From Candidatus Eiseniibacteriota bacterium (GTDB lineage: Bacteria; Eisenbacteria; RBG-16-71-46; JABDJR01), in the NCBI GenBank assembly GCA_963762255.1, contig CAVXKA010000002.1:643371-707370 (forward strand): 64,000 nucleotides of DNA. The letters run 5' to 3'. A program made the position numbers and the translations under genes. Shown here in pieces: positions 1 through 51,017 of the stretch. The first letter of the stretch is position 1. Each line of letters starts with the position of its first letter. Under the pieces are notes generated by a model. It was not told where the DNA came from and ran no database searches. It saw only the letters and a program-made list of their open reading frames with translations.

Positions 1-2091
1 AAGGTGCGCCACGTTGGAGACCGCGTGGCGGCGGTCGTGGCCGAGACGCCGGAGATCGCCGAGGAGGCGCTGCGGCGTATCAAGGTCGAGTATGAGGTGC
101 TCAAGCCCGTGCTCTCGATCGACGAAGCCGCCGCGCCGGGCGCGCCGCTCATACACAACAGCGTGCTCGAGTACGTGACGGGCGAGCCGGCCGGTCTCGA
201 CAACAGCAAGGCCGACCCGCGCGACGGGCGAATCATCTACCAGTTCCCGATTCACGCCGACCCCCGCCACAACATCGCGGCCAGCGTATCGGGCGGGATC
301 GGGGACGTCGCCCGCGGGTTGTCCGAGGCCGAGGTCGTGCTGGAGCGCGAGTATGAGACCTCGCAGGTCCAGTGCACTCCCCTCGAACCGCACGTCGTCT
401 ACACGCGGATGGACGGCGACCGACTCGTGATCCACGCTTCGACACAGGTCCCGTGGCACCTCCGTCGAATCGTCTCGCGGATCCTCAAGATCAGCGAGAA
501 TCAGGTCCGCGTGATCAAGGAACGCGTGGGCGGCGGTTTCGGCGCGAAGCAGGACATCGTCCTGGAGGAGCTGGCGGCCTACGCAACCTGGGTGACCGGA
601 CGGTCCGTCCTCTACCGCCTCACGCGCGAAGAGGAGTTCATCGCCTCGCGCACCCGCCACCCGATGAAGATCAAGGTCACTCTGGGCGCCAAGCGGGACG
701 GCAAGCTGACCGCGATCGAGATGGAGGTCCGGGCCAACACCGGTCCTTACGGGGCGCACGCCCTGACCGTGCCGATGAACGCGTGCTCGAAGAGCCTGCC
801 GCTTCTCCTCTGCGAGAACGTGCACTTCAACGTGACGACCTACTACTCGAACATCCCGCCGTGCGGGGCTTACCAGGGCTACGGCGCGCCGCAGGGATCG
901 TACGCGCTGCAACTGGCCTGCGCGGAGCTGGCCTCCGAGCTGGGCATGGATCACCTGGCGTTCATCGAGAAGAACCGCGTGCGCGAGGGGATGACCCTCG
1001 AGATCCTGCGTTGCCTGGGCGAGGGTCGCGAGGGCACCCCGCAGGCAGTCTCGAGCTGCGGCCTCGGGCCGGCGATCGAGCAGGGATCGGCGATGATCGA
1101 GTGGGGCAAGAAGGTGGAGACCACCGATCCGCACGTGCGAATCGGTAAGGGGCTGGCGATCATTCAACAGGCCTCGGGGCTCCCCGGAATCGACTCCGCC
1201 AACGCCACGGTGAACCTGCTCGGCGACGGCACCTTCATGCTGCTGAGCGGCGGCACGGACCTGGGCACCGGGCTGGACACGCTCATCGTCAAACTGGTGG
1301 CCGAGTGCCTTTGCACCGGAATGCAGGACGTCTCGCTGATCGTAGCCGACACCGACGTGACGCCTTACGACGATGGCGCCTATGCCTCGAGCGGCACGTT
1401 CTTCTCCGGCAACGCGGCTCTCAACGCCGCTCAAGGGATGAAGCAGCGGATCCTGGAGACGGCGGCCAAGATGCTGGGCGAACCGGAAGAGGATCTGTCG
1501 CTCGTCTTCCCGTCCACGGTTCAGGGGCGCAAGGGTTCGGTGACCTACGCCGAGGTGTCGCGCTTCACGGTGTCGGGCACCGGCAGCGGCCAACTCACGA
1601 GTTCCGCGTGCTTCACAACGGACAAGGCCGCGTTCCCCTACGGAGCGCACTTCTGCCAGGTCGCGGTTCACATGCTCACCGGCGAGATCACGGTCCAGAA
1701 GTACTACGCGCTCCAGGACTGCGGAACGCCCATCAACCCCAAGCTGGCGCTTGGACAGATGTACGGCGGCGTGCTCAAGACGATCGGCCATTCCCTCTTC
1801 GAGGAGATGATCCTGGATGCGAAGGGGCGCTGCCTCAACGCGAACCTGCGCGACTACAACGTGCCGATGATCAATGACGTACCGGAGGACTTCCAGGTGG
1901 TGCTGATCGAGACCACCGATCCCTTCGGCCCGTTCGGCGGGAAGTCGGTGTCGGAGATCACCTGTAACGGCGCGGCGCCCTCGATCGCGGCGGCCATCCA
2001 CGACGCCACCGGGGTATGGATACGGAGTTGGCCGTTCAGCGCGGAAAAGATCCTGGACGGATTGAGGCGCATGCGGGAGTCCTCCCGGTGA
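1..2091 (+). CDS. Xanthine dehydrogenase / aldehyde oxidase family molybdopterin-binding subunit (5-prime partial, runs off window start)
   Basis: 695-aa ORF with clear similarity to molybdopterin-binding large subunits of the XDH/CoxL family (start motif RHVGDRVAAVVAET...EEA, long conserved body). The window begins inside the gene. The stop TGA (2089-2091) overlaps the next start ATG (2091-2093). Confidence 0.85.
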   Translation, partial: KVRHVGDRVAAVVAETPEIAEEALRRIKVEYEVLKPVLSIDEAAAPGAPLIHNSVLEYVTGEPAGLDNSKADPRDGRIIYQFPIHADPRHNIAASVSGGIGDVARGLSEAEVVLEREYETSQVQCTPLEPHVVYTRMDGDRLVIHASTQVPWHLRRIVSRILKISENQVRVIKERVGGGFGAKQDIVLEELAAYATWVTGRSVLYRLTREEEFIASRTRHPMKIKVTLGAKRDGKLTAIEMEVRANTGPYGAHALTVPMNACSKSLPLLLCENVHFNVTTYYSNIPPCGAYQGYGAPQGSYALQLACAELASELGMDHLAFIEKNRVREGMTLEILRCLGEGREGTPQAVSSCGLGPAIEQGSAMIEWGKKVETTDPHVRIGKGLAIIQQASGLPGIDSANATVNLLGDGTFMLLSGGTDLGTGLDTLIVKLVAECLCTGMQDVSLIVADTDVTPYDDGAYASSGTFFSGNAALNAAQGMKQRILETAAKMLGEPEEDLSLVFPSTVQGRKGSVTYAEVSRFTVSGTGSGQLTSSACFTTDKAAFPYGAHFCQVAVHMLTGEITVQKYYALQDCGTPINPKLALGQMYGGVLKTIGHSLFEEMILDAKGRCLNANLRDYNVPMINDVPEDFQVVLIETTDPFGPFGGKSVSEITCNGAAPSIAAAIHDATGVWIRSWPFSAEKILDGLRRMRESSR

Positions 2092-3569
2092 TGAGTCCCC
2101 CGCGATTCGTCCTCTGCCGCGCGGATTTCCTGTTGCCGCTGGCGGCGCCGGATCGCACCGAGCGCATCGCCGACGGCTACGTCTTGAGCGAAGGCGAGAC
2201 GCTGCGCGAGGTCGGCCGCTACACGCCCGAAATCGGTCGTCGCATCCGCGCGGCGTGCGGATCTGAACTGCTCATCCTGGGCGACGCCGCACCGGGCGAC
2301 GACGTGCCGAGGATCAACGGCGTCCTCATGCCGTCGTTCGTCAAGGCGCACGGGCACGATCACGAACAACCGCTCATCGGCATCGCCAAGGACGAGCCGC
2401 TGACCGACTGGCTCGACCACGCGGTCAATCCCTTCACCGCGTTCATGAACACCCAGCACGAGCGCCTGTGCCGCGAGTTGGGCGACTCGCCGCACCTCAT
2501 CACCTACCGGCTGGCGCGGCTCTGCGACATCCACTACGGCATCACGACGAGCCTGGTCCACCACTGCAACTTCAACAAGCACCATGTCCGCGAGGTCGCG
2601 CAGGCCAACGAAGCCGCCGGCACGACCATGATCGTGGGGATCGGGAGCCAGGACCGCAACTACGTGGCCGAAGCGCTGGATCGGCCGGCGGAGGCGATCG
2701 AGCGCCTCGACGCCGCGCTCACGATCCCCGGTCTGACGCGCACCACCTTCTGCCCCGGGCCGGATCAGTTCTTCTCCAACGGTCGCGAGATGCTCGTTCC
2801 GCTCAAGGCGTGGGCGCGCGCTCACGGGACGCTCTTTCATATTCACAGCGCGGAGGAGCCGCTTACGACGCGCTGGTTCAGCGCGGAGGTCGAGCCGGGG
2901 CTGACCGAGGTCGAGTTCGCCGAATCGCTCGGGATCCTCGACGCCGATACGATGCTCGCGCACCAGGTGAACTGCGGGCCGCGAGACATCGAGATCCTGG
3001 CACGCACCGGCACCAGGATCGTGCACAACCCGCTGGCGAACACGATCCTCGGCTCGGGCATGCCACCGGTGATCGAAATGATGGCCGCCGGGGTCCTGGT
3101 GGCGATTTCGACGGACGGTTCAGGATCCGCGGACAACCAGAACATCCTCGCCGCCGCGCGACTCGCCGCGCAGTATCAGAAGGCGCTCCACCAGGACGCT
3201 ACGCTCCTCAAGTCCCAGCAGCTCCTGGAGATGATCACGAGTGTCCCCGCGAAGATACTGAGGCAGAATCAGGGCGAACTCGCTCCAGGCCGTCAGGCGG
3301 ACTGGATCGTGATCGGGCTCGATCGTCCCAACCTCACCCCCACCCGTCTCGACAACGTCGTCGAGAATCTGATCTGGGCGGCCGACGGGAGCGAGGTGGA
3401 CACGGTTGTGGCGCGCGGGCGGGTACTCAAGAGGGACGGTCGGATTCAGTCGTTTGCCGACGGGTCCGATCCCACCGGGATCCGTTCAGCGGCGCAGCGG
3501 CTTTCCGAACTCTACGCCGAGCACCGGCGCACCTCCCCGGAGCTGAGAGGCACGGGAGCCCACCGCTAG
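2091..3569 (+). CDS. ssnA: Amidohydrolase, SsnA-like (chlorohydrolase/aminohydrolase family) of selenium-dependent molybdenum hydroxylase clusters
   Basis: Amidohydrolase metal-binding signature (FVKAHGHDHEQ, HxH), about 490 aa, start overlapping the upstream stop. Followed by MocA, YqeB and YqeC, the typical SDMH cluster context. The listed ORF start at 2016 is probably an over-extension; ATG at 2091 is the preferred start. Confidence 0.75.
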   Translation: MSPPRFVLCRADFLLPLAAPDRTERIADGYVLSEGETLREVGRYTPEIGRRIRAACGSELLILGDAAPGDDVPRINGVLMPSFVKAHGHDHEQPLIGIAKDEPLTDWLDHAVNPFTAFMNTQHERLCRELGDSPHLITYRLARLCDIHYGITTSLVHHCNFNKHHVREVAQANEAAGTTMIVGIGSQDRNYVAEALDRPAEAIERLDAALTIPGLTRTTFCPGPDQFFSNGREMLVPLKAWARAHGTLFHIHSAEEPLTTRWFSAEVEPGLTEVEFAESLGILDADTMLAHQVNCGPRDIEILARTGTRIVHNPLANTILGSGMPPVIEMMAAGVLVAISTDGSGSADNQNILAAARLAAQYQKALHQDATLLKSQQLLEMITSVPAKILRQNQGELAPGRQADWIVIGLDRPNLTPTRLDNVVENLIWAADGSEVDTVVARGRVLKRDGRIQSFADGSDPTGIRSAAQRLSELYAEHRRTSPELRGTGAHR

Positions 3570-3573
3570 TCGG

Positions 3574-4146
3574 ATGAGCGTTACTGCAATCCTCCTGGCC
3601 GCCGGTTCCGCTCGTCGGTTCGGGAGCGAGAAGCTGCTTGCGCCCTATCGCGGACGACCGCTCTACGAGCATGCGCTCGAGGCGCTCAAGTCCTCGCCTG
3701 GCGTGGGCGAGATTCTGGTGGTCGTTCAGCTGGAGTTTCCGCTGCCACCCGAGCAGCCGCGCGTGAGATTCATCACCAACCCGGACCACAAAGAAGGCAT
3801 GGCGTCTTCGCTGCGTACCGGCGTGCGGGCGGCGTCGGCGGGTACGGCGGCGTATCTCATCGCGCTGGCGGACATGCCGGGGGTCAGCGCGAATCTCATC
3901 GCCGCGCTCTTCGAGTTCCGTCGCGCGACCGGCGCACGGATTGTTGTACCGCGATACGAGGGCCGCCGAGGCCATCCGGTGCTCATAGACGCCGACTTGC
4001 GCGATGCGCTGCTCGCGCTTTCCGGCGATGTCGGCGCGCGTGAGATCATCGCCGCCCACCCGGAATGGGTCGGCAACTTCGAGACAAGCGACGCAGGCGT
4101 CGTCTTCGATGTGGATGATCCCAATGACCTCGCGTCCGATGGCTGA
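3574..4146 (+). CDS. mocA: Molybdenum cofactor cytidylyltransferase, MocA/MobA-like nucleotidyltransferase
   Basis: 190 aa, N-terminal LLAAGSARRFG motif typical of MobA/MocA nucleotidyltransferases. Located in the molybdoenzyme cluster. Confidence 0.8.
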   Translation: MSVTAILLAAGSARRFGSEKLLAPYRGRPLYEHALEALKSSPGVGEILVVVQLEFPLPPEQPRVRFITNPDHKEGMASSLRTGVRAASAGTAAYLIALADMPGVSANLIAALFEFRRATGARIVVPRYEGRRGHPVLIDADLRDALLALSGDVGAREIIAAHPEWVGNFETSDAGVVFDVDDPNDLASDG

Positions 4147-4969
4147 GGGGGGTACCGTGCGGGAACGGATCGTGATCAAGGGAGCGGGAGAGCAGGCGTC
4201 TGCCACCGCCCACCGACTCTTCCGGTGCGGATACCGGGTTGTGATGACGGACCTAGATCAACCGACCGCGGTCCGCCGCACCGTGTCGTTCTGCTCCGCC
4301 ATCTACGAAGGCGAGATCGAGATCGAAGGGGTGCGCGGGGTGCGGCATCGTCTCGAAGACATCAACGCACTGTCGGACGCGGCATGGACTCACATCCCGG
4401 TGTTCGTCGATCCGGAGAGCACGCTCGTGCGGCGATGGCGACCCGAGGTGATCGTGGACGCGAGGCTCCTCAAACGGAACTTAGACAACCACCGTGATGA
4501 CGCGCCCCTCGTGATCGGCCTCGGGCCCGGGTTGGAAGCGGGGCGGGATGTGCACTTCGCGGTCGAGACGATGCGGGGGCATGATCTGGGCCGAATCATC
4601 GCGAGCGGGTTCACTTCGAACGACACGGGCGAGCCCGGCGAGATCGGCGGGTATGGCCGCGAGCGCGTGCTGCGGGCTCCGGTTCAGGGGCTTTTCGCGA
4701 GCCCGCACGTGATCGGAGACCACATCGCGGCCGGGGAGGTCGCAGGAACCGTCGCCGGCGCGGAAGTTCGCGCCGAGATCCCAGGTGTGATCCGCGGCCT
4801 CCTCCGGCCCGGACTCAAAGTGGAAGCGGGCACGAAGCTGGCCGATGTTGATCCGCGCGATGATCCCACCCTCTGCTACAGGATCTCCGACAAGGCACGC
4901 GCCACCAGCGGCAGCGTTCTCGAAATCGTGGTGGCTCATGCCGGCCGGAAATCGCACTCCGATTCTTGA
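4139..4969 (+). CDS. yqeB: Selenium-dependent molybdenum hydroxylase system protein, YqeB family (XdhC/CoxI-like Rossmann accessory protein)
   Basis: The listed ORF starts at 4004, but an in-frame ATG at 4139 (MAEGGTVRERIVIKGAGEQASATAHRLFRCGYRVVMTD, Rossmann GxGxxA) overlaps the mocA stop by 8 nt. Size and motif fit the YqeB/XdhC-type family. Confidence 0.65.
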   Translation: MAEGGTVRERIVIKGAGEQASATAHRLFRCGYRVVMTDLDQPTAVRRTVSFCSAIYEGEIEIEGVRGVRHRLEDINALSDAAWTHIPVFVDPESTLVRRWRPEVIVDARLLKRNLDNHRDDAPLVIGLGPGLEAGRDVHFAVETMRGHDLGRIIASGFTSNDTGEPGEIGGYGRERVLRAPVQGLFASPHVIGDHIAAGEVAGTVAGAEVRAEIPGVIRGLLRPGLKVEAGTKLADVDPRDDPTLCYRISDKARATSGSVLEIVVAHAGRKSHSDS

Positions 4970-5720
4970 GGCCTTCTCCGCAAACGAGTTCCGCTACGTC
5001 CACCTGATCGGGGGCGGCGGCAAGACCAGGCTCATGTTCGCGCTGGCACACGCGCTTGCGGACACAGGGGCTACCGTCCTCACCGCCACGACAACGAAGA
5101 TCTACGAGCCCGAGACGGAGGAATCGGATTGCGTCGTCTTCGAGTCCGATCGTGCGCGTCTCGTGAACCGCCTGCGCGCCGAGTTCGCCGTGCGCCGCCA
5201 CGTCACCGCGGTCGCGGGGCCGGACGCGACAGGGCGGAAACTCGAGGGGCTGGACGTCGCCGTGCTCGACGCCGTCGTGGACTCGCGCGTGGCCGATCAC
5301 GTGTTGGTGGAGGCCGACGGCGCGGCGGGGCGATCGCTCAAGGCGCATGCCGATCACGAGCCTGTCATCTCCGCACGCGCCGATCTCGTGATCGCCGTCA
5401 TCGGCGTGGACTGCCTCGGCTCGCCCATGGATGATGAGTACATCCATCGCGCTGCGCTCTTCCGCGAGCGGCTGGGCCGCCCGGCGGAGGCGATTGTCAC
5501 ACCCGAGGACGTGGCCGCCATCCTGCTCCATCGCCTTGGTTACCTGGCCCGCGTGAGTTCGAACACCCGCGTATTCGTCTTCATCAACAAGGCGGGGACG
5601 GCGCAGGCGCGCGAGCAGGCGCGGCAGATCAGCGCGCAATTGAAGCGGGACGATCGCGAGGGCCGCGTGAGCCGCATCGTCATCGGCGACGTGAGGGAGC
5701 GCGTGTTCGAGGAGACCTGA
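4938..5720 (+). CDS. yqeC: Selenium-dependent molybdenum hydroxylase system protein, YqeC family (P-loop-like GGGGKT)
   Basis: In-frame ATG at 4938 (MPAGNRTPILEAFSANEFRYVHLIGGGGKTRLMFALA) overlaps the yqeB end by 32 nt. The GGGGKT motif, about 260 aa length and co-location with yqeB/ssnA/XDH fit the YqeC family. Confidence 0.65.
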   Translation: MPAGNRTPILEAFSANEFRYVHLIGGGGKTRLMFALAHALADTGATVLTATTTKIYEPETEESDCVVFESDRARLVNRLRAEFAVRRHVTAVAGPDATGRKLEGLDVAVLDAVVDSRVADHVLVEADGAAGRSLKAHADHEPVISARADLVIAVIGVDCLGSPMDDEYIHRAALFRERLGRPAEAIVTPEDVAAILLHRLGYLARVSSNTRVFVFINKAGTAQAREQARQISAQLKRDDREGRVSRIVIGDVRERVFEET

Positions 5721-5765
5721 CCACCAGAACGGCCGACCGATTCCCGAAAGCTCTCTCCGGAAGAT

Positions 5766-6695
5766 CTACTCCTCGGACAGCACGCGAACCGAGTCCCCCT
5801 CGATCTGCAGAACCTGGAGCGCGCCACCGTAGGCGGCCGACATCCCCACGTCGATACACCACACCTTGCCGTCGCAGTAGCTCGTGATGCCTTCCTCCTG
5901 AATCGAATGGCCGACGACCATCCGCTTGGCCGAGAGCCGGGAGAGCACGGTGCTCAGCGTGTCGCACGCTCCTTCACTCACATCTACCGAGTAGAGGCGT
6001 GTCCAGGTGGGACTGCAACATCCCTTGTGGGCCCACTCCGGATTGGGGCCCTCCCCGAGCATCCAGGCGCGGATCTCGGCGTTCACCGCATCCAACCCCT
6101 TGTCGACATGCTCCGGCAAGACACCTCCATGGACGAAGACGTTGTCGCCGACCACGGTCACGGTGTTCCGCTCCGCGAGCACGCGGGCATAGGGCCCCCC
6201 GGGGCGAAACGCGGCGGCGCGGGGCCGCTGCGATTCGTCAAAGCGGAGCAGCACCGAATCTGCCTGCCCCACGGTCACCGCATCCCGGAAGTCCTCGAAG
6301 CCACCCGGCGTCGCGTAGCGCAGATCCAGGGCCACATTCATGAGCTCGTGGTTGCCGTTGAGAACGTGCACCGCTCCTCCGGCGGCGGCCGCCTCGCCGG
6401 CCAACCGGGTGAAGAGGTCGAGGATGGCTTGCTCATCGTCGCCGCGATCGAGCTGGTCCCCGGTCTGGACGACGACCAGATCGCCCCCGATCCACCGGTC
6501 CGTTTCATCGATGGCGCCCGCGAGTCGCAGCGCGCGCCGACACGCGTCGAGGTCACCGTGGAGATCGCCGATGGCGACGATCCGGGGCACTGCCGGGTAA
6601 CGCGTGGGAATCGCGTCGCCGGCGATCGCCGGAAGCGCGGTGATCGACCCTTCGATCAGCAAGACAAGTAGCGACACCAGCCATTTCACCCGCAC
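5766..6695 (-). CDS. Secreted calcineurin-like metallophosphoesterase
   Basis: Signal peptide plus GDLHGD...GDxxDRG...GNHE metallophosphoesterase motifs. Confidence 0.8.
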   Translation of the reverse strand: MRVKWLVSLLVLLIEGSITALPAIAGDAIPTRYPAVPRIVAIGDLHGDLDACRRALRLAGAIDETDRWIGGDLVVVQTGDQLDRGDDEQAILDLFTRLAGEAAAAGGAVHVLNGNHELMNVALDLRYATPGGFEDFRDAVTVGQADSVLLRFDESQRPRAAAFRPGGPYARVLAERNTVTVVGDNVFVHGGVLPEHVDKGLDAVNAEIRAWMLGEGPNPEWAHKGCCSPTWTRLYSVDVSEGACDTLSTVLSRLSAKRMVVGHSIQEEGITSYCDGKVWCIDVGMSAAYGGALQVLQIEGDSVRVLSEE

Positions 6696-6955: not shown

Positions 6956-7735
6956 TTATCGTGACGAGCCGGGCATGAGGGCGGCGGGATCCTGTTCATA
7001 GAACCGAGTCAGCTCGGCATACAGCTCCGGGTGCTCCCGCCGCATGGCGACCGGCCGCTCGAAGAACGCTTCCGTCACCACCGCGAAGAACTCGGCGGGG
7101 TTGGTAGCGCCATAGGCATCGATCACGGATTGGTGGCCCTGATGCAGTTCGGCGATCAGGCCTTCGTACTCCCCGCTCAGGACACGCGCCCATTCTCGGT
7201 AACGGGCCGGCGGCCCGAGCGCCGGCGCGCCTTCCATCGCGCCGGACTCACTGTCGATCTGATGGGCGAACTCGTGAAAGACGACGTTGTGCCCGTCCGC
7301 GGGATCGACCGCGCCGCTGAGCACGTCCGACCACGACAAGACCAACGCGCCTCGCTGCCAGGACTCACCGAGTCGCGCCTGCGGTCCTTCCTCGATGACG
7401 CCGCCCGGCTGAACGCGTTTCGACCGGGCTATGTAAGCGTGCGGATAAACCAAGATCGACGTGAGCGTCGGATAGAAGTCGGTCCTGCGATGAAGGAGCA
7501 GCACCGCCGCCTGCGCGGCGATAGTCACACGGATTTCGTCGGTGATCTCCAACCCCGCGCACCCTTCGAATCGCTTCTCGTCCAAGAGCACCTGAGCGAC
7601 TCCCGCAAGCTCTTTGCGGTCGGCACTGCCAAGCGACCGAACATAGGGCACGTTGCGGTCAATGATCCGCCACCATGCTTCGGGGAGCGGGCGATCACGG
7701 AGTTGGCGACGTCTTCGCGCACGAATTCCAAACAC
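6956..7735 (-). CDS. mtfA: MtfA-like zinc-dependent peptidase (M90 / Mlc titration factor A family)
   Basis: HEFAHQ zincin motif in a roughly 260-aa protein with overall similarity to the MtfA/DUF980 family. Confidence 0.7.
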   Translation of the reverse strand: MFGIRARRRRQLRDRPLPEAWWRIIDRNVPYVRSLGSADRKELAGVAQVLLDEKRFEGCAGLEITDEIRVTIAAQAAVLLLHRRTDFYPTLTSILVYPHAYIARSKRVQPGGVIEEGPQARLGESWQRGALVLSWSDVLSGAVDPADGHNVVFHEFAHQIDSESGAMEGAPALGPPARYREWARVLSGEYEGLIAELHQGHQSVIDAYGATNPAEFFAVVTEAFFERPVAMRREHPELYAELTRFYEQDPAALMPGSSR

Positions 7736-7776
7736 GGGTACACCCTTGCGTGAACGGGGTCACTCCCCCGCTGTTC

Positions 7777-10230
7777 CTATTCGGAAGCCGGCCTCCGGGA
7801 CGTAACGTTGACAACAAAATCAGCGCCCTCCCAGCGGTCTGCGTCAGGCCAGTAGAACGTGAACCTCACTTGCTTCCCTGCCGGTAGCGCCCGTGTCGGC
7901 AGATCGGCGACATGGATGGCCAGTCCGGTATCGTGCGAGTCAGTATCACGGACCGTATTCCAGCCGTCGTTACTCCAGTGGATGACCGCGGGGGCGCATG
8001 TCTCGATGCGCAGCGTCTTACCGGCCGACATGAAACGAATCTTGTGGTTGAAGCGCCACACCGCGTGCGCCGATTCGATCTTGTCCACGAGATACCGCTG
8101 CACCGTCTGCGGGGGCATGTCGAAGACCCGACCATCCCGTAGTGAACGAAGCAACTTCAGGTACTCGGCATGCGCCCATACCAGCGGCATGGCGGAGCCG
8201 GATGGCCGCCCGAAGTACAGCTCCCGTTCCGCAATGTCCGGAGCGTCCCAAACCTGCTCTGGAAGCAACCCCTCCGCCCCGGCGAAAGACTCTAGAGCCG
8301 CCTGAAGCCGCTGGGCCTCTCCGACCCGGCCAGCAGCCAGTTCGAAGTGGGCCCGCTCGCCGGTCAAGAGCGGCCACACCCGACCGATCCCTGTGCCGTC
8401 AAAAGGCTCGCCATCCCTATGCTCGCCATAGCCGTCGCCGTTGTACCGGTGCCAGATCGGGCCCTGTGCGGTCTCGACCTTGAGCAGCGCGTCGATGACT
8501 TTGACCGTGTCGACCATGCGCGGATCATCGGCTGCGCGCAGACCAAAACGAACCAGAGCGAGGGCATCGGGGCTCACCAAGTGACTGGCAAAACTGCTGG
8601 CTCGCTCGAAGGCGACGTTCTTTACCGGAACGCTCTTCTGGAAGCGGGACGCTCCCTCTTCCGTCTCCACCGGAGCGATGCGGACGTAGTACCCCGCGAC
8701 TTCAAACTCCCGGCACCAATCGGTGCCGGTCACGTACATCCACCGATCGATGGATGCGTTCCAGGCGTCGGCGGTCTCACGCAGGTAGGTCGCGATCGAC
8801 GGCTCGTGGTGCACCTCGGCCAGATCGGCTGCGGCCAGGAGCGCTGAGATTTCGGCCGCGACCGTGAACGGCGAGTATCCGGGATCCTCCTCCCATCGGT
8901 CCTGCGGGCTGACCGGCCCGTTGTGGATCAAGTAGACCGCGGCTTGCCGGACCATCGGCCAGAACCTGGCCACGTCGTCCGCGTCCAGTGCGTTCTCGCG
9001 CCGAGCCGCATCCACGAGGAGAATCGGCAGAGCTGTCTCGTCCATCTGAATGCCGTTCCAGTAGGGGGAGCCATCCAGCCACATGTTCTGAGCCCAGTGT
9101 CCGTCAGCTTCTTGGGTCGCCTGCAGGTAGCAGAGGACGCGACGAACCTCCTCGTGGGCACCGGCAGCCAAGAACCCCCCCGCCGACTCCACCAGATCGC
9201 GCGGCCAGGTGAGGTGATAGCCGCCCAGGTCGTTGTCACCCTTGCTGAATCCCCACGGAATGGAAAGGCTGGCGATGATTCCACCGGGGAAGGTGGCCGC
9301 CTCGTGAGTGCGTAAGACGGCCGTGCTGACTCGGTAGAAATTGTGCCCGCCGGCCGGCCATTGCGTATCGAGCGGCAGCAGCGTCTCCTGCCATTTGCTC
9401 CACTCCTCGACATATGCCGATTGCGCGGCGTCGAAACCGTCCTGAAGGGCCGCGCGGGCTCGGTTACCCGCCTCGGCTGCGTTGCGCCCGAACCCCAGCG
9501 CCAGCAGAAACTCTCCGCCCCCCGCATTCAGGTCGATCTCCGCCGTCAGGGCAATGTTGCCGTTTTCGGCCCGTGTGTACTCCCACGTCATCCGCTTGTG
9601 AGACGACAGATCCTGCCAGCCGTCCGAGAACCCGACGAACCCCACGGAACGTTTGAGCCAGGGGAAGGAACACGCCAGGGCCAACGCGTTCCCGTCCCGT
9701 TCGGCGAACAACATCGGAATGCCCTTGTACTCGTCGATCCATCCGGTGTTGCCGGCTCCGTGATTGCCCAAGTGAGGGGCGAGCACTACATGGAGCCGAT
9801 AGTCCGAAATCCGTCCCCGCTGGGCAACGAACCGGGTCTGCTGCAATACGGCCTCTCGCCGAGGATCGGCCACGATCTTCTTTTCGATGCGGTAGCGCCC
9901 CTGAAGGCACGTGTTGACCTGAGAGAAGGCCGGCACGCCGTCGGCCAGCCAGTGCACTTCGCTCCTGGCATCCCGTTTCTCCTCGGAGAAGAAGTCCGCG
10001 CCGTTGGTGACGATCAGCCCCATGTCGCGTATGCACGCTTCGTCAATCCGGGGATGGTAAATCTCGTTGAAGATCCCGTGGCTCAGCGTGAACCAGACGC
10101 GGCTCTTGCTGTGGAGGGAAGTCCCTACCCCCGACTTGGCACTGGAGGTCCAGCGCGCCGGAATCCCCGGCCACCCCGGTGGGTGGCGTTCCGGTGTATC
10201 CATACCGTCTCCTGTCGCTGCTTCCTGCAT
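7777..10230 (-). CDS. Glucoamylase / glucodextranase (glycoside hydrolase family 15)
   Basis: Bacterial GH15 N-terminal signature (PPGWPGIPARWTSSAKSGVGTS...) and a long (alpha/alpha)6 catalytic region. The Arg-rich 68-aa N-terminal extension of the 885-aa ORF is probably not translated. Preferred start is the ATG at 10230 (alternative 10203 with a GGAG RBS). Confidence 0.85.
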   Translation of the reverse strand: MQEAATGDGMDTPERHPPGWPGIPARWTSSAKSGVGTSLHSKSRVWFTLSHGIFNEIYHPRIDEACIRDMGLIVTNGADFFSEEKRDARSEVHWLADGVPAFSQVNTCLQGRYRIEKKIVADPRREAVLQQTRFVAQRGRISDYRLHVVLAPHLGNHGAGNTGWIDEYKGIPMLFAERDGNALALACSFPWLKRSVGFVGFSDGWQDLSSHKRMTWEYTRAENGNIALTAEIDLNAGGGEFLLALGFGRNAAEAGNRARAALQDGFDAAQSAYVEEWSKWQETLLPLDTQWPAGGHNFYRVSTAVLRTHEAATFPGGIIASLSIPWGFSKGDNDLGGYHLTWPRDLVESAGGFLAAGAHEEVRRVLCYLQATQEADGHWAQNMWLDGSPYWNGIQMDETALPILLVDAARRENALDADDVARFWPMVRQAAVYLIHNGPVSPQDRWEEDPGYSPFTVAAEISALLAAADLAEVHHEPSIATYLRETADAWNASIDRWMYVTGTDWCREFEVAGYYVRIAPVETEEGASRFQKSVPVKNVAFERASSFASHLVSPDALALVRFGLRAADDPRMVDTVKVIDALLKVETAQGPIWHRYNGDGYGEHRDGEPFDGTGIGRVWPLLTGERAHFELAAGRVGEAQRLQAALESFAGAEGLLPEQVWDAPDIAERELYFGRPSGSAMPLVWAHAEYLKLLRSLRDGRVFDMPPQTVQRYLVDKIESAHAVWRFNHKIRFMSAGKTLRIETCAPAVIHWSNDGWNTVRDTDSHDTGLAIHVADLPTRALPAGKQVRFTFYWPDADRWEGADFVVNVTSRRPASE

Positions 10231-12455: not shown

Positions 12456-12799
12456 CTGGCTCTCCTTTGGGTATGCGTGTATTGAGTCCGTGGCGTCCCC
12501 GAGCTTTGTCGCTCCGATATCCATTCTAAGTCCGCGGGTCAGCATATTCCAGAGTAGGGCGCAGACGGGGTCGGGACGGACGACTCGGGGGATTAAGGCC
12601 GCCGATCAGATGCCGAGATCAACCCCGTCGTCGCGGACTCGTTGGACCACGTCGAAGATCTCCCTGACGAGAATCGGGGCGAGGCACTGTCCCCCGCGCC
12701 CCGTCACGTTGTTGTAGATTATGGGCTCGTTGTGACGGAGCCGACGGCCTCCGGGGTTCTTGTCCGACTCGCCCCGAGCCACTCAGATGGAGGAAGACG

Positions 12800-15700
12800 A
12801 TGCCGGGATTCACCCCAGGACGACGTTTCCAGCCGGCCTACCTAAGCTTCATACGCCGGCCGGCTGCTGAGCGCCTGCTCGCGCTCTTGGAACGTCAGAC
12901 CAAGGGCACGCTGTTCGGCTGCCGCATGTGCGGCAACTGCCTGCTGCAAGAGACCGCTTTCATCTGCCCGATGGAGTGTCCCAAGGGGCTGCGCAACGGA
13001 CCTTGCGGCGGCTCCACTCCGGAGGGTTGCTATGTGGATCCCGGGCGCCCCTGCATCTGGCACCACATCTTCGAGCGCGCCGACCGGATGGGGCGCACCG
13101 ACCGCCTGATGGAGGTCCTGCCGCCGCTCGACTGGGCGCGGGTGGGCCGGGAGACGTGGGGCGAGGTCATCGACGAGGTTCGCCGCCGTGGATTCGGCAA
13201 GGCCTTGGCCAGCTTCCTCGCGGGCCGCGAGCAGCGAGCCGCCTTCTGGGATCCCCTATTTCTCGGTATCCGCCAGCCCGACTGGTGGCAGGGGGACGAC
13301 GCACCGCACCCTGCGCTGGCACACGCGCCGGTGTCGCGACTCGAGGAGAAACTGGCGGCCGGCCGCTTAGTCGTCACCTCGGAGGTGGCCCCCCCACTCT
13401 CGGTGGCGCCCGAGGAGCTGACCGGCACCCTGCGCCTCCTGCGTGACTGGATCGACGCGGCCAACTTCACCGACAACCCGTCGGCAACCCCCAGAATGTC
13501 TTCGCTGGCTTGCTCGGTGCTGGCCCTGGCCCAGGGTGTGGAACCGGTGATGCAGGTGGCTGCGCGTGATCGCACCCGTATGGGACTGCAGGCTGAGATT
13601 CTGGGCGCTGCGGCGTTGGGCATCCGCAACGTTCTCTGCCTGACCGGGGATCATCCCGTCCTGGGTCCCTCGCCGCAAGGACGCATGGACATCTGGGACA
13701 TCGACTCCATCCAGATGCTCTGGATTCTGCGCCGCATGCGCGATGCGCGGCAGTACATGGACGGCCGGGCGATCAAGAATCCGCCCGCGCTGTTCCTCGG
13801 CGCCGCGGCCTCGCCATTTTCATCCACGCCGCGGACACAGGCCCTGCGGGAACTCAAGAAGGTTCACGCCGGCGCTCAGTTCTTCCAGAGCAACCTCATC
13901 TACGATGTCGAGGGTTTCGAGAGCTACGCGGAAGCGCTGGACAAGGCGGGTGTGCTCGGAAAGACGCCGTTCCTGGCCGGGATCACGCCAGTGCGCAGCG
14001 CGCGCGCGGCGCACGCCATGTCGAAGGTGCCCGGCGTGAAGATCCCACCGGCCCTCATCGAGCGCCTCGAGAAATCGCGCAACCCCCAGGAGGAGGGGGT
14101 GCAGATCGCCCTCGAGATCATCGACCGGGTCAAGCGCCTGCCGGGGATCAGCGGTTTCCACATCATGGCCGTGGGCTGGGAACTGATCGTGCCGCGGCTC
14201 GTCCGCGAATCGGGATTGAAGGAGCCGCCGGCGCCGACGGGCGACCCCGGCATCTCGATCCGCACACCCACCCGGGCGCCGCGTGCGTCGCGGCCCGCCG
14301 AGCGCCCGCCGGCGGAGCACACCGACCGCCGCTACCTGGACGCGTTGACCTCAAAGGTCCTGGTCTTCGACGGCGCCATGGGCACCGCCATCCAGATGTG
14401 CAACCTGACGGCTGCCGACTTCGGCGGCGAAAAGACGGCCGGCTGCAACGACTACCTGGTCCTCCAGAAGCCCGACGTCATCGAGGGGATCCACGCCTCC
14501 TACCTGGAGGCCGGCTGCGACGTGATCGAGACCTGCACCTTCCGCGCGAACCGGCAAACCATGGCGGAGTACGGGCTCGAGAACCGCATTCCGGAGATGA
14601 ACCGCGCGGCGGCGGTGCTGGCGCGCCGAGCGGCCGACTCCTTCTCTACCGCGGAGCGACCCCGCTTTGTGGCCGGCTCCATCGGCCCCACCGGCATGCT
14701 CCCCTCTTCCTCGGATCCCGAGCTGTCAGCCATCGCGTTCGAGGAGCTGGCCGACATCTTCTCCGAGCAGGCCGAGGCCCTGGTGGAAGGGGGCTGCGAT
14801 CTCCTCCTCATCGAAACCTCCCAGGACATGTTGGAGGTCAAGGCCGCCATCATGGGTGTGCAGGACGCTTTCGCCCGGACCGGCAAGAGAATCCCGCTTC
14901 AGGTCCAGGTCACCTTGGACGCCACGGGCCGGATGCTCCTCGGCACCGATGCGGCCGCTGTGCTTGCCACGCTGGAGCGAATGCCGGTGGACGTGCTGGG
15001 CATCAACTGCTCCACCGGGCCCGAGCACATGCGCGCACCGCTGGCCTATCTGGGCGAGAACTCCTCGAAGCCCGTCTCCTGCCTGCCCAACGCGGGTCTG
15101 CCTGAGAACGTCGATGGAGAGGCGGTCTATCCGCTCCAGCCGGACGGCTTCGCCGAGGAGATGGCGGACTATGTGGAGCGCTTTGGACTGAACGCGGTGG
15201 GCGGCTGCTGCGGCACAACCCCGGAACACATCCGCATGCTCGTCGAGCGACTGCACGGCCGAGAGCCCCGGCCTCGGACGGCCCGCCCGCTCTCACTCGT
15301 GTCATCAGGAATCACCGTGGCCGACCTGGTCCAGAACCCGCGTCCGATGCTCATCGGCGAGCGGTTGAACGCCCAGGGGAGCAAGAAGATGAAGGAGCTG
15401 CTGCTGGCCGAGGACTACGGCGGCATCGCAGCCGTGGCCCGGGAGCAGATCGACGGCGGCGCGCACACGCTGGACATCTGTGTGGCGATGACCGAGCGGC
15501 GGGACGAGAGCTACCTCATGTCCCGGGTGGTCCGGACGCTGAGCCAGACGGTGGAGGCGCCGCTGGTCATCGACACCACCGAAGCCGAAGTGCTAGAAGC
15601 CGCGCTGCAAGCGGCCCCCGGTCGCATCATCGTCAACGCGGTGAACATGGAGAACGGCCGCCATCGTGTGGACACCATGCTGCCGCTGATCCGCGACTAC

Positions 15701-17827
15701 GGCGCCGCCACCATCGCGCTGACCATCGACGAGATCGGGATGGCCCGCACTGCCGAGCGCAAGCTGGAGGTGGCCCGGAAGATCCACGACATCGCCACGA
15801 AGGAGTACGGGATTCTGCCCGATGCGCTCATCTTCGACGCCCTGACATTCACGCTGGCCACCGGCGACCCTGAGAGCGCCAACACGGCCGTGGAGACGCT
15901 GGAGGGAATCCGGCGGATCAAGGCCGCACTTCCCGGCGTGATGACATCCCTCGGGGTGTCGAACGTCTCCTATGGATTCAAGCCGGCGGCGCGCCGGGTG
16001 CTGAACAGCGTCTTCCTCTACCACGCGGTGGAGGCCGGGCTGGACATGGCCATCGTGAATCCCAAGCAGGTGACGCCGTACGCCGAGATCCCGGCCGCAG
16101 AGCGCGAGCTCGCCGAGGACCTTCTTCTCAACCGGCGGCCGGATGCCACGGCCCGGTTCATCAGTTTCTACGAGGGGGCCAAGGCCAGGCAGGTGGAAAC
16201 GGTCGATCCCACCGCCGGGCTGCCGCCGGCGGAGCGGTTGCACGCGCGCATCCTGCACCGCAAGCCGGAAGGGCTCGAAGCCGACGTGGACGCCCTTGTC
16301 GTGGCCGGCGTGCGCGAGAAGACCGGGGTGACCGATTTCACGGCGGAGCCCGGCTATCACTTTCCCAATGCCGACACCTCGGCGGTGGCGGTGCAGGTTC
16401 TGAACCAGGTGATGCTGCCGGCTATGAAGGAGGTCGGCGACAAGTTCGGCTCCGGCGAGTTGATCCTCCCCTTCGTGCTCCAGTCGGCCGAAGTGATGAA
16501 GAAGGCGGTGGGACAGCTCGAGAAGTATCTGGAGAGGGCCGAGGGGGTCAGCAAGGGGAAGGTCGTCCTGGCCACGGTCTACGGTGACGTCCACGACATC
16601 GGCAAGAACCTGATCAAGACGATTCTGGCCAACAATGGCTACAGCGTGTACGACCTGGGCAAGCAAGTGCCGGTGAACGTGATCGTAGACCAGGCGGTGG
16701 AGCTCAAGGCCGACGCCATCGGGCTGTCGGCGCTGCTCGTGTCCACCTCGCGGCAGATGCCGCTCGTGGTCCGCGAGCTGGACCGGCGCGGATTGTCCAT
16801 GCCGGTGCTGGTGGGAGGTGCGGCCATCAACCGCCGCTTCGGCCGGGAGATCGCGCACGTGGAGGAGGATCGCCCCTACGCCGGCGGCGTGCTCTACTGC
16901 CGCGATGCGTTCGAGGGGCTGGAGACGATCGATCGGCTGGCCGATCCAGCCGCGCGCAAAGAGCTGCTGGCAGGCGAGCGTCGAGCGGCACAGGAGCAGC
17001 GGAAGCCGGCGGCGGCTGGGGGGGCCTCCGCGCAGGAAGACTCCGCCCGGTCGTTGGTGACGCCTCGACCCGAGGACGTCCCCACGCCGCCGTTCTGGGG
17101 GTCCCGCACGGTGGCCGAGCTGCCGATCGAGGAGGTCTTCTCCCGTCTCGACGAGAACAGGCTCTTCAAGATGTCCTGGGGGGCAAAGAGCAAGCTCGAT
17201 GCGGAGTCGGAAGGACTGCGCGGGGAATTCGGCGCGCGCTTGGTGCGGATGAAACGCGCGGCGATCGAGGAACGGTGGTTTGCGCCTCAAGCGGTCTACG
17301 GCTACTTCCCTGCCCAAGCTGACGGCAACGACCTGCTCATCCTCGACCCCGCCGACCATCACCAGGTGCTGGCCCGCTTCTCGTTCCCGCGGCAGAAGGG
17401 ACCGGAACGTTTCTGCCTGGCGGACTACTTCCTGCCGGTCGGCTCGGCGAGGGCTGACGTTGCGGCGCTGCAGGTGGTGACCGTCGGCTCCGCGGCCACT
17501 GCGCGGTTCGACGCAATGGATGGCAAGGACGAGTACAGCGAGGCCTATTACTTCCACGGGCTGGCCGTGCAGACCGCTCAGGCGGCCACGGACCTGCTAT
17601 TCGAACGGATCCGGAAGGAGCTGGGCCTGCCGGATGGGCGCGGACGATCGTACGCGTGGGGCTTCGGTGCGTTGCCCGACGTGGAAGAGCATCGCAAGGT
17701 ATTCCGCCTGCTCCCCGCGGAGCGGGACCTGGGGATGACCCTGACCTCGGCGGGGCAGATGGTGCCCGAGCAGTCCACGGCGATGCTGGTCGTGCATCAC
17801 CCGGAGGCGCGGTACTTCAACGTGTAG
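12800..17827 (+). CDS. metH: Fusion protein: MetV-like Cys-rich MTHFR C-terminal-type domain + methylenetetrahydrofolate reductase (MetF) + complete cobalamin-dependent methionine synthase (MetH: Hcy-binding, pterin-binding, B12-cap, B12-binding DxHxxG, AdoMet-activation domains)
   Basis: Single uninterrupted 1675-aa ORF with a strong RBS (GGAGGAAGACG-ATG). N-terminus has CxxCxxC / CPMECPKG / PCGG cysteine clusters, then an MTHFR-like body (LVVTSEVAPP...CLTGD). A Pro-rich linker follows. The MetH body starts with the Hcy-methyltransferase motif VLVFDGAMGTAIQ, the B12-binding motif DVHDIGKN is present, and the C-terminus is the reactivation domain. Confidence 0.85.
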   Translation: MPGFTPGRRFQPAYLSFIRRPAAERLLALLERQTKGTLFGCRMCGNCLLQETAFICPMECPKGLRNGPCGGSTPEGCYVDPGRPCIWHHIFERADRMGRTDRLMEVLPPLDWARVGRETWGEVIDEVRRRGFGKALASFLAGREQRAAFWDPLFLGIRQPDWWQGDDAPHPALAHAPVSRLEEKLAAGRLVVTSEVAPPLSVAPEELTGTLRLLRDWIDAANFTDNPSATPRMSSLACSVLALAQGVEPVMQVAARDRTRMGLQAEILGAAALGIRNVLCLTGDHPVLGPSPQGRMDIWDIDSIQMLWILRRMRDARQYMDGRAIKNPPALFLGAAASPFSSTPRTQALRELKKVHAGAQFFQSNLIYDVEGFESYAEALDKAGVLGKTPFLAGITPVRSARAAHAMSKVPGVKIPPALIERLEKSRNPQEEGVQIALEIIDRVKRLPGISGFHIMAVGWELIVPRLVRESGLKEPPAPTGDPGISIRTPTRAPRASRPAERPPAEHTDRRYLDALTSKVLVFDGAMGTAIQMCNLTAADFGGEKTAGCNDYLVLQKPDVIEGIHASYLEAGCDVIETCTFRANRQTMAEYGLENRIPEMNRAAAVLARRAADSFSTAERPRFVAGSIGPTGMLPSSSDPELSAIAFEELADIFSEQAEALVEGGCDLLLIETSQDMLEVKAAIMGVQDAFARTGKRIPLQVQVTLDATGRMLLGTDAAAVLATLERMPVDVLGINCSTGPEHMRAPLAYLGENSSKPVSCLPNAGLPENVDGEAVYPLQPDGFAEEMADYVERFGLNAVGGCCGTTPEHIRMLVERLHGREPRPRTARPLSLVSSGITVADLVQNPRPMLIGERLNAQGSKKMKELLLAEDYGGIAAVAREQIDGGAHTLDICVAMTERRDESYLMSRVVRTLSQTVEAPLVIDTTEAEVLEAALQAAPGRIIVNAVNMENGRHRVDTMLPLIRDYGAATIALTIDEIGMARTAERKLEVARKIHDIATKEYGILPDALIFDALTFTLATGDPESANTAVETLEGIRRIKAALPGVMTSLGVSNVSYGFKPAARRVLNSVFLYHAVEAGLDMAIVNPKQVTPYAEIPAAERELAEDLLLNRRPDATARFISFYEGAKARQVETVDPTAGLPPAERLHARILHRKPEGLEADVDALVVAGVREKTGVTDFTAEPGYHFPNADTSAVAVQVLNQVMLPAMKEVGDKFGSGELILPFVLQSAEVMKKAVGQLEKYLERAEGVSKGKVVLATVYGDVHDIGKNLIKTILANNGYSVYDLGKQVPVNVIVDQAVELKADAIGLSALLVSTSRQMPLVVRELDRRGLSMPVLVGGAAINRRFGREIAHVEEDRPYAGGVLYCRDAFEGLETIDRLADPAARKELLAGERRAAQEQRKPAAAGGASAQEDSARSLVTPRPEDVPTPPFWGSRTVAELPIEEVFSRLDENRLFKMSWGAKSKLDAESEGLRGEFGARLVRMKRAAIEERWFAPQAVYGYFPAQADGNDLLILDPADHHQVLARFSFPRQKGPERFCLADYFLPVGSARADVAALQVVTVGSAATARFDAMDGKDEYSEAYYFHGLAVQTAQAATDLLFERIRKELGLPDGRGRSYAWGFGALPDVEEHRKVFRLLPAERDLGMTLTSAGQMVPEQSTAMLVVHHPEARYFNV

Positions 17828-27400: not shown

Positions 27401-27621
27401 GGATGGCGTTGCCGCTCCCCGGTCGTCTGCAATTGTCGGTCTTCGACGTGGCCGGCCGCCGGGTTCGGCTTCTCATGGATGAGCAAGTTCCGGCAGGGTG
27501 GCACGAGATCGAATGGGACTTGCGCAACGACCGCGGACAGACTGTGCCTGCCGGAGTCTATTCCCTCCGCCTCGCGACTCCCCTGGGCCTCCGGAAGGAA
27601 AGACTGGTCGTTCTACGGTGA
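24424..27621 (+). CDS. Large secreted repeat protein (four roughly 230-aa internal modules, He_PIG-like Ig segments) with C-terminal T9SS/FlgD-Ig-like sorting domain
   Basis: Strong RBS GGAGGTGAGAC-ATG. Signal peptide present. Repeated module motifs (C..G.F.I..L.F....L.A.FEQHC...G.IRFDARVL; FTWTPD/FQWTPE/VTWVPDP). C-terminal approximately 80 aa (LQLSVFDVAGRRVRLL...GVYSLRL...LVVLR) is shared with two other proteins in the window. Confidence 0.7.
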   Translation: MHRLPTLLTGPRRPFTCQAARGMLALSLVLSSLLSAPAAAVETRLLRLHSDPGDWIGKGADLHFTGADGAFSLTGTPSAIVVIVNTLEAHWRLEFGAPAGTTLAPGLYEKARRWPFNDGAPGISIDGNEGGCNEILGRFTIKEIEFSGARPTRFWAVFEQHCENGTDALWGEIRFDARVLVDIDVPVRAFAPTLKSLTIPVSAEALEGGDVALSATGLPGGSTFTDHGDGSGTFTWTPDRKQVGRHIVTFSGRSGPYQGSATTTLLATGDYLLSINSDPDHAVGQGDTLLFTPDDGWFLDRYSTSAWVQTEFQLPDHSSWRFGFHTDGTPITPRFYTDIRGTDEAGPGLILDVSGNSMVCGGVRGWLQIKKLSFDLDGRLESLWATLEHHCARYTDPGPALFAEVRFNSPTAVAVNPIPTQTAVIGHRLEFPVVASDVQGRSVTLAVVDPPPGSSLVPAGAGMGSFQWTPEFDQAGDHVVFFQGSNQAGDRDSSGALIHVRGETSLTLREEGEDGIEVYRRLPADGEFEVLASNRARLRVTYKTPNYSEHFLVELTTPSGVEAFTPGFYETGPGLAGLSMMGRLNDQSVLCEDSGGMSPQGAFEIRRLIWGGDNQPEQLYVAFSAPCKEGKSVVRGELRIDARVLTDLQTPVWSRAEAGKPVSIEVKGIDARGRSLALSGVHLPEGAWFDDRGDNSGVVTWVPDPSHIGGSQLVFGARAGSEDVTTSSSWVEVTGETWLNVHSEAGDPVGEGLDRRIEPPSAEFDSYILADNSVHVRAFEGGRRWTLHFAAGFDSILTAGEYENVTRWTATGPHETPGILIERTGETCGAITGRFTVHSISYGLNRTLKSLHASFRQTCEGAPGALAGELLVNSSPELIPVRVLNFNACPVHGQVRLQWVTGEETSAVGFDIWRHVEAGDWEQLNVSPITGGPTYDYLDPHPPVGQPIFYFIDSIDLSGHRERHGPVNAYVESARNPALAVANNPTRSPTRIRMALPLPGRLQLSVFDVAGRRVRLLMDEQVPAGWHEIEWDLRNDRGQTVPAGVYSLRLATPLGLRKERLVVLR

Positions 27622-30978: not shown

Positions 30979-31093
30979 GTTCACCTCCGAGGACGTGACA
31001 ACGCCGGTACTCGATAATGATGACAATTCTTATTCTATTTGCTGGTCGAATTATTGTAGCAGAATCCAGGAAGCCGCGTCGGATCAGGCGAAG

Positions 31094-50991: not shown

Positions 50992-51017
50992 AACGGACAG
51001 TTCCCCGATAGGCTCGA

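Follow-up and report, generated by a model that had tools for sequence, protein, structure and literature searches.

Uric acid is converted to 2,8-dioxopurine by XdhD-YgfM of Escherichia coli with NADH (PMC12507026), and these two proteins are encoded in one locus with MocA, YqeB and YqeC in the reductive uric acid/2,8-dioxopurine cluster of this organism (ygfM-xdhD/mocA/yqeB/yqeC; b2875-b2881). The XdhD-type members characterised so far perform this reductive dehydroxylation of urate to 2,8-dioxopurine (PMC12507026; bioRxiv 10.1101/2025.04.24.650524), a chemistry that was worked out only in 2025 and in gut bacteria only. One of them is the 2,8-dioxopurine dehydrogenase (DOPDH; XdhAC) of Clostridium sporogenes, which is inactive when purified from a selD mutant; this need for SelD was shown experimentally, and the genomes carrying an enzyme of this type also have YqeB and YqeC (bioRxiv 10.1101/2025.04.24.650524). 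In C. difficile, growth on urate needs yqeB (PMC11448449). Besides, selenium-dependent molybdenum hydroxylase (SDMH) loci of the Enterococcus faecalis EF2563-EF2570 type hold YqeB, YqeC and MocA/YgfJ beside an enzyme of the xanthine dehydrogenase (XDH) family (Haft and Self 2008). Of all biological uses of selenium, the labile cofactor of molybdenum hydroxylases is the one understood least, and in earlier surveys this trait was found mainly in host-associated anaerobes (PMC5029168). Here we analysed a stretch of 64,000 nucleotides, hereafter the window, from Candidatus Eiseniibacteriota bacterium (contig CAVXKA010000002.1, positions 643,371 to 707,370). Its first 5720 nucleotides carry five genes that probably belong to the operon of an XdhD-YgfM-type urate/2,8-dioxopurine enzyme, with genes for selenium maturation and an amidohydrolase other than SsnA. 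Numbered from the start of the window, the genes are:

1..2091, plus strand: XdhD/YgfN-type molybdenum (Mo) subunit, C-terminal 696 aa (3' 2091 nt), the 5' end being cut by the window edge
2091..3569, plus strand: amidohydrolase of 492 aa, cog0402 or TRZ/ATZ deaminase group (Pfam Amidohydro_1)
3574..4146, plus strand: MocA-like molybdenum cofactor cytidylyltransferase of 190 aa (best match TIGR03310; Pfam NTP_transf_3)
4139..4969, plus strand: short-form YqeB of 276 aa, counted from the ATG at 4139 (TIGR03309)
4938..5720, plus strand: YqeC of 260 aa (TIGR03172, Pfam YqeC)

This locus shares with the E. coli cluster an XdhD, probably likewise fused as iron-sulfur (Fe-S)/Mo protein, with the same active-site positions (57% identity with residues 264-953 of E. 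coli XdhD and 32% with XdhA), a probable YgfM-type flavin adenine dinucleotide (FAD) subunit directly upstream, as seen in the relatives, and the occurrence of MocA, YqeB and YqeC in one locus. It differs in that the genes of the window form one compact co-directional operon, in that its YqeB of 276 aa lacks the N-terminal XdhC-like half of the E. coli protein (541 aa), and in that an unrelated amidohydrolase follows xdhD. With the C. sporogenes enzyme, compared by its published description, the locus shares an XdhD-type, probably fused enzyme. However, clostridial DOPDH does not use NAD(P)H and XdhD of C. difficile is without a YgfM subunit (PMC12507026), whereas the relatives of the window operon have a YgfM-like FAD subunit.

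The product of 1..2091 carries the Pfam domains MoCoBD_1, MoCoBD_2 and Ald_Xan_dh_C. It matched the NCBIfam model TIGR03313 with 961.3 bits over model positions 260-950 of 951 (73% of the model), the cut-off being 1101.9 and the product being truncated; a full-length relative which is 80% identical to it (locus L007) passes this cut-off with 1282.9. A preliminary description of this DNA had named the gene as an XDH-family molybdopterin subunit, which is borne out, the subunit being of the XdhD type. As the match to TIGR03313 starts at model position 260, the two [2Fe-2S] domains probably belong to the same polypeptide, and the missing N-terminal ~263 aa, which by comparison comprise these domains and the beginning of the hammerhead domain, would lie outside the window. 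N-terminal Fer2 and Fer2_2 domains are fused to the Mo domain in L133 and L007. Hence of the FAD and Fe-S subunits that had been expected upstream, the FAD subunit is retained, as judged from the relatives, while the Fe-S domains are probably the N-terminus of the fused Mo protein.

For the active site, the numbering was taken from a human xanthine oxidoreductase fragment checked against PDB 2ckj/2e1q and aligned to 57 XdhD-family sequences, a set that includes E. coli XdhD; the alignment of 58 sequences also includes XdhA. The residues compared with the bovine enzyme and with E. coli are:

Gln184, 550..552, plus strand: position of bovine XDH Glu802 (substrate-binding), Gln in 57 of 57 XdhD-family sequences
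Asn260, 778..780, plus strand: position of bovine XDH Arg880 (substrate-binding), Asn in 57 of 57, Ala in E. coli XdhA
Gln292 (Q292): position of bovine XDH Arg912, Gln throughout the XdhD family
Tyr294 (Y294): position of bovine XDH Phe914, Tyr throughout the XdhD family
Glu341, 1021..1023, plus strand: equivalent of E. coli XdhD Glu606, Glu in 57 of 57, Asp in XdhA
Glu652, 1954..1956, plus strand: catalytic glutamate assigned by motif, which we take from that motif to be the position of bovine XDH Glu1261; the Glu column is invariant in 58 of 58, XdhA included

The residues Q184, H253, T256, N260, Y291, Q292, Y294 and E341 were invariant across the 57 XdhD-family sequences, and all of these together with E652 are the same as in E. 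coli XdhD. Glu606 of the latter has been proposed to orient urate (PMC12507026). The same replacements of the classical xanthine-binding residues were found in spirochaete enzymes that are encoded inside complete uricolytic clusters. In a neighbour-joining tree the window enzyme grouped with environmental sequences, in a clade whose sister holds E. coli XdhD and the spirochaete enzymes; XdhA was distant from both clades. By sequence, the nearest solved structure to the Mo subunit is 4-hydroxybenzoyl-CoA reductase, which is also a reductive dehydroxylase. The earlier assignment to a purine or nicotinate hydroxylase type is therefore replaced, as the enzyme is XdhD-type and the characterised members dehydroxylate urate reductively. 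By analogy with these members, urate/2,8-dioxopurine appears to be the substrate, and we hold this with moderate confidence.

The two selenium-related maturation genes were recognised by curated hidden Markov models (HMMs). The product of 4139..4969 matched TIGR03309 (NCBIfam) with 315.7 bits against a cut-off of 220, over model positions 1-254 of 256, and YqeB was its sole strong NCBIfam match. With E. coli YqeB it shares 41% identity over residues 269-536 of the latter. No Pfam match to the XdhC_CoxI or XdhC_C domains was obtained in this product at E<=0.01, and the possibility raised earlier that it is simply XdhC fails accordingly. YqeC scored 174.1 bits against TIGR03172 (cut-off 73.05) and 1.1e-38 against Pfam YqeC, and its P-loop GGGGKT is encoded at 5010-5027. 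With both markers passing their curated HMMs, the proposal of an SDMH-type cluster with YqeB and YqeC beside an XDH-family enzyme stands.

To place the locus among its relatives, one genome per species was scanned, which gave 65 related loci, and downstream genes were counted in the 41 loci with at least 4.5 kb beyond the Mo gene. In 28 of the 41, from several phyla, both yqeB and yqeC lie downstream of the Mo gene on the same strand, and therefore the gene grouping is not due to chance. Downstream mocA was found in 29 of the 41, its place between the enzyme gene and yqeB being kept, and the amidohydrolase gene came immediately after the Mo gene in 12. Upstream, a YgfM-like FAD subunit gene was present in 60 of the 65 loci, followed in the relatives by a full-length subunit of ~960 aa. 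The block FAD-XdhD-(amidohydrolase)-MocA-YqeB-YqeC is seen again in uncultured Eisenbacteria, Phycisphaerae, Myxococcota and Ozemobacteraceae. The closest of the 65 loci are from metagenome-assembled genomes (MAGs) of Candidatus Eisenbacteria, with 79-82% protein identity. The nearest relative (L133/L134) has 86.5% nucleotide identity across the operon and shows the order FAD_binding_5 subunit (275 aa), Fer2/Fer2_2/hammerhead/MoCoBD subunit (959 aa), amidohydrolase (492 aa), MocA, YqeB and YqeC, with a metallophosphoesterase gene further downstream as in the window. From these relatives we infer that 1-5720 is the distal five-sixths of a six-gene operon, whose YgfM-like FAD gene and ~263 XdhD residues would lie upstream.

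Within the window the genes are closely packed. The Mo subunit and amidohydrolase genes meet at TGATG with a 1-nt overlap, by which the amidohydrolase is predicted to be translationally coupled to XdhD. A 4-nt gap separates the amidohydrolase and MocA genes, MocA and YqeB overlap by 8 nt (ATGGCTGA), and YqeB and YqeC overlap by 32 nt. The preliminary description had five consecutive plus-strand genes with overlaps; the five genes were confirmed, and the overlaps hold at three of the four junctions of the 1-5720 block. Alternative starts for YqeB are ATG 4124 and GTG 4157, the latter with GAGGGGGG just before it. As the third-codon-position GC of the five plus-strand open reading frames (ORFs) is 0.76-0.89 against 0.66 region-wide, the five ORFs are coding and the antisense ORFs are high-GC artefacts. 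The public gene calls of the source contig (1,436,571 nt) match the amidohydrolase (492 aa), MocA (190 aa) and YqeC (260 aa) products. The metallophosphoesterase gene (5766..6695) that comes next after yqeC is convergent, so that the operon ends at 5720. No terminator or sigma-70 promoter was found near the 3' end of the operon, and searches for a molybdenum cofactor riboswitch or any other Rfam element were negative for the window and for the regions preceding the operon in seven relatives.

The gene at 2091..3569 had been described as SsnA-like, an identity which we rejected. Its product scored 101.4 bits against TIGR03314, the SsnA model, where the cut-off is 455.5, and is 21% identical to E. 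coli SsnA. It has in common with SsnA the Amidohydro_1 fold, the TRZ/ATZ group and a gene position beside XdhD-type enzymes, but ~100 invariant positions of its family are not shared with SsnA or GuaD. Besides, one locus (L033/L073) holds an SsnA-like gene (34% identity to E. coli SsnA) as well as this amidohydrolase, and therefore the two have different functions. None of the curated NCBIfam models reached its cut-off with the protein. At least 120 homologues were found, with 67-93% identity among the matches listed and nearly all of 480-512 aa; those listed are all from metagenomes or MAGs, and are named just 'amidohydrolase family protein' or auto-labelled as methylthioadenosine/S-adenosylhomocysteine (MTA/SAH) deaminase. 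The metal-binding and catalytic residues H87, H89, H250, H252, E255, H291 and D342 are invariant in the family. The amidohydrolase belongs to a separate, uncharacterised and highly conserved family of 492-aa proteins.

The AlphaFold2 model of this protein had a mean predicted local distance difference test (pLDDT) of 88 and a predicted template-modelling score (pTM) of 0.90. Its nearest folds were AtzA, the isocytosine/8-oxoguanine deaminase 7ww2, MTA/adenosine deaminases and TrzN, with a template-modelling score (TM-score) of 0.76-0.79 and 20-24% identity. The best sequence and fold matches are 7ww2 and related cog0402 deaminases (AtzA, TrzN, MTA/SAH deaminase), whose metal and catalytic set of HxH, His, Glu, His and Asp is conserved in it, and all of these fold neighbours displace an exocyclic group from an aromatic N-heterocycle. 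The fold search with the predicted structure gave no specific function, only the general cog0402 deaminase/dehalogenase group.

In a metagenome scan, homologues with at least 70% identity adjoined an XdhD-type gene or mocA/yqeB wherever those flanks were present; fragments ending at the amidohydrolase gene, and the Elusimicrobia locus L070 with an upstream 873-aa gene of no assigned identity, were uninformative for this pattern. Homologues with 47-68% identity were located away from XdhD. About ten of these lie beside an ATP-binding cassette (ABC) transporter of the Bmp/PnrA type (purine-nucleoside type), and three are also near XdhA/XdhC-like genes. The transporter-linked loci, with homologues of 49-68% identity, are L078-L088, L094 and L111 (for example L079 2862-7724), and the transporter consists of a binding protein, two permeases and a double ATPase. 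In a 7-Mb genome (L069), a xanthine/uracil permease and a purine nucleoside phosphorylase are encoded just upstream of the FAD-XdhD-amidohydrolase block. The genomic context of the amidohydrolase thus consistently points to purine metabolism. Most likely it would be a hydrolase that depends on zinc and takes a purine-type N-heterocycle as substrate, one step from the Mo enzyme.

From what was observed, namely the order of the genes, the families to which they belong, the conserved active-site residues of XdhD and the synteny kept among relatives, the following route can be proposed. By analogy with E. coli XdhD-YgfM, electrons from NAD(P)H would pass to the YgfM-like FAD subunit and, by way of two [2Fe-2S] clusters, reach a Mo-molybdopterin cytosine dinucleotide centre, where uric acid would reversibly lose its C6 hydroxyl and become 2,8-dioxopurine. 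MocA would transfer cytidine monophosphate (CMP) onto Mo-molybdopterin to form the cytosine dinucleotide cofactor, and YqeB and YqeC would install the labile selenium ligand on molybdenum. The selenium would presumably come from selenophosphate made by SelD, with selD presumably elsewhere in the genome. The amidohydrolase may catalyse the step that precedes or follows that of the Mo enzyme, with either an aminopurine being deaminated or the product being hydrolysed.

Several observations weigh against this reading. The clade of the window enzyme is separate from that of the characterised enzymes, at 57-61% identity. The FAD subunits of the relatives scored 137-158 bits, below the TIGR03312 cut-off of 241.5. 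MocA, which had been named in the preliminary description, has TIGR03310 as its best NCBIfam match and Pfam NTP_transf_3 at 3.4e-42, and this part of the naming is probable, but its 141.5 bits are below the cut-off of 186.45. The amidohydrolase is without a characterised close relative, its best solved structures being those at 20-24% identity, and no sequence feature separates a selenium-liganded from a sulfur-liganded Mo centre. Within the 64-kb window, selD, yedF/yedE, an EF2568-type desulfurase and a selenocysteine tRNA (tRNA-Sec) were not found. For this search E. coli SelD, YedE and YedF, as well as YedF, desulfurase, SelD and NifS-SelD from related loci, served as tblastn queries, and Pfam on about 45 ORFs and a search for tRNA-Sec were added. 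The other genes of the E. coli cluster, namely ygfK/uacX, ssnA, hyuA, ygeW/uacY, ygeX, ygeY and yqeA, were also not found in the 64 kb, so that the organism either encodes the remainder of the known pathway outside the window or lacks it. The spirochaete relatives carry downstream uricolytic genes; such co-localisation marks a pathway cluster and not the XdhD enzyme family.

An alternative that we regard as unlikely keeps the same operon and selenium maturation, with the enzyme acting on another N-heterocycle or as an oxidative C6 hydroxylase, and with the amidohydrolase deaminating an aminopurine, pterin or pyrimidine to supply the substrate. The distinct clade of the window enzyme, the lack of downstream uricolytic genes nearby in the window, and amidohydrolase folds nearest to exocyclic deaminases and dehalogenases of aromatic N-heterocycles would all fit such an enzyme. 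However, every substrate-pocket position examined is the same as in E. coli XdhD and in the enzymes of the spirochaete uricolytic clusters, and in Phycisphaerae the block lies beside PreT/PreA-like, SsnA-like and hydantoinase-like genes.

In these Phycisphaerae regions (L072 1-2871 and L073 1-6234), the block adjoins PreT/PreA-like reductase genes (Fer4_20/Pyr_redox_2 and DHO_dh/Fer4), an amidohydrolase of SsnA-like or hydantoinase-like type and another, second Fe-S/Mo enzyme. Their gene content suggests a fuller variant of the reductive purine pathway.

Somewhat less probable again is that the amidohydrolase is a non-orthologous replacement of SsnA which opens the pyrimidine ring of reduced 2,8-dioxopurine, the YgfK/UacX-type reductase and later enzymes being encoded elsewhere in the genome. 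Its gene adjoins XdhD and is coupled to it through TGATG, and the superfamily is common to SsnA, as such a replacement would have it. But L033/L073 has an SsnA-like gene in addition to the amidohydrolase, the homologues with 47-68% identity occur without XdhD nearby, and the operon is without a reductase.

The link to selenium is drawn mainly from the related loci. In 11 of them (Ozemobacteraceae type), yedF and an EF2568-type cysteine desulfurase come directly after yqeC, and selD is next in 8 of those 11, i.e. wherever the contig reaches far enough. In these loci YedF scored 188-190 bits (TIGR03527, cut-off 110), the desulfurase 361 (cut-off 377) and SelD 361 (cut-off 125). Examples are L020 4710-7707 and L056 14163-17250, and also L021, L022, L030, L036, L051, L053, L059 and L062, with selD seen in 8 of these 10; the SelD of these loci has an N-terminal extension of ~80 aa. 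They resemble the E. faecalis type, in which selD, yedF and a cysteine desulfurase gene are adjacent as well, whereas neither the window nor its Eisenbacteria relatives have selenium-supply genes linked to the operon. In the Bradymonadales locus L013, which bears the amidohydrolase, a NifS-SelD fusion (799-aa ORF at 47-2446) lies ~6 kb upstream of the FAD gene. As TIGR03309 has been reported only from selD-positive genomes (PMC2276186), and on the combined presence of yqeB and yqeC, we consider it likely, with good confidence, that the window enzyme depends on selenium.

An ordinary Mo hydroxylase with a sulfur ligand, in which YqeB and YqeC are just chaperones for cofactor insertion and the organism uses no selenium for the enzyme, is improbable. 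No selenium gene was found within the 64 kb, deletion of yqeC in C. difficile had no phenotype (PMC11448449), and YqeB or YqeC alone may have selenium-unrelated roles (PMC5029168), all of which it would accommodate. Against it, yqeB and yqeC are both present here, adjacent and above their cut-offs, the family of the former has been reported only from selD-positive genomes (PMC2276186), related operons run straight into yedF-csd-selD, and the clostridial orthologue requires SelD (bioRxiv 10.1101/2025.04.24.650524). A selenate reductase, after the historical annotation of E. coli YgfK/YgfM/YgfN, is very improbable and was already disfavoured, since only the TIGR03313 model name 'Se_sel_red_Mo' speaks for it, while YgfK neither requires nor is stimulated by selenate, purine substrates have been defined for XdhD and YgfK, and ygfK was not found in the window.

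As standard annotation models name four of the five genes, most of the urate/2,8-dioxopurine operon with selenium maturation was already predictable, and the one new feature is the uncharacterised amidohydrolase. In this locus the enzyme and maturation set would make up a minimal six-gene operon, in free-living uncultured phyla of soil and sediment. Such a small self-contained operon (FAD subunit, XdhD, MocA, short YqeB and YqeC) would be a convenient unit for heterologous reconstitution of selenium insertion, and the linked conserved amidohydrolase is a candidate for a new step in purine breakdown. Only tentatively, and with some doubt, we propose that the amidohydrolase and a selenium-dependent XdhD-YgfM make up a compact urate/purine route without YgfK or SsnA, in which the amidohydrolase would be a new purine-ring enzyme always placed after XdhD in this clade, in free-living Eisenbacteria, Phycisphaerae, Bradymonadales and Thermoanaerobaculaceae. 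If such a route is true, the selenium-cofactor trait extends well beyond host-associated anaerobes.

Apart from these, some features of the relatives were observed. In L133, a perfect sigma-54 promoter (TGGCACacggaTTGCT) at 5986-6001 precedes the FAD gene by 313 nt; no other sigma-54 match occurs in 21 kb of this locus, where 0.01 is expected by chance. A sigma-54 activator with XylR_N/V4R domains is encoded at 3033-4700, 1.6 kb above the promoter, in parallel to YgeV of E. coli and DioR of C. difficile. As 62 other loci lack the motif ahead of their FAD gene, the sigma-54 promoter was rejected as a feature of the family. The same locus has a glutathione peroxidase gene (13698-14336) between yqeC and the metallophosphoesterase gene, where the window has just a 51-nt spacer (5708-5759). 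The active site of this peroxidase, NVASKCG, is that of a Cys enzyme, and hence it was rejected as a selenoprotein. In L071, the closest Eisenbacteria relative in the genome collection, genes for Sulf_transp (YedE/YeeE family) and rhodanese proteins were seen at 709-2543, ~4 kb upstream of the FAD gene and beside NrfD/Fer4_11 genes. At 7121-9983 of this locus (the same as L052; an Eisenbacteria MAG), XdhD is called as a 439-aa fragment with a split tblastn match, which is probably a frameshift or assembly error in the long-read MAG and not a real pseudogene.

The remainder of the window holds further genes of note. On the plus strand at 12668-17827, a single ORF of 1719 aa encodes a methylenetetrahydrofolate reductase (MTHFR) module (DUF5981 and MTHFR) and, joined to it, a cobalamin-dependent methionine synthase that is complete (S-methyl_trans, Pterin_bind, B12-binding and Met_synt_B12); for a fusion of these two successive steps in the synthesis of methionine it is unusually large. 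An ORF of ~995 aa on the minus strand (48134-51121) has Beta_elim_lyase of the tryptophanase/tyrosine phenol-lyase type in its C-terminal ~400 aa, the preceding ~580 aa being without a Pfam match. Two secreted proteins, each longer than 1000 aa and alike in their C-termini (24424-27621, plus strand; 27901-31026, minus strand), flank a tRNA-Leu(TAA) gene at 27769-27857, and FlgD_ig, FG-GAP and ASPIC/UnbV repeats were confirmed by Pfam only for the second of them. On the minus strand at 36232-38506, GTP cyclohydrolase I, a QueD-like 6-pyruvoyl-tetrahydropterin synthase and an AlaX-like protein with a tRNA_SAD editing domain are encoded in a row.

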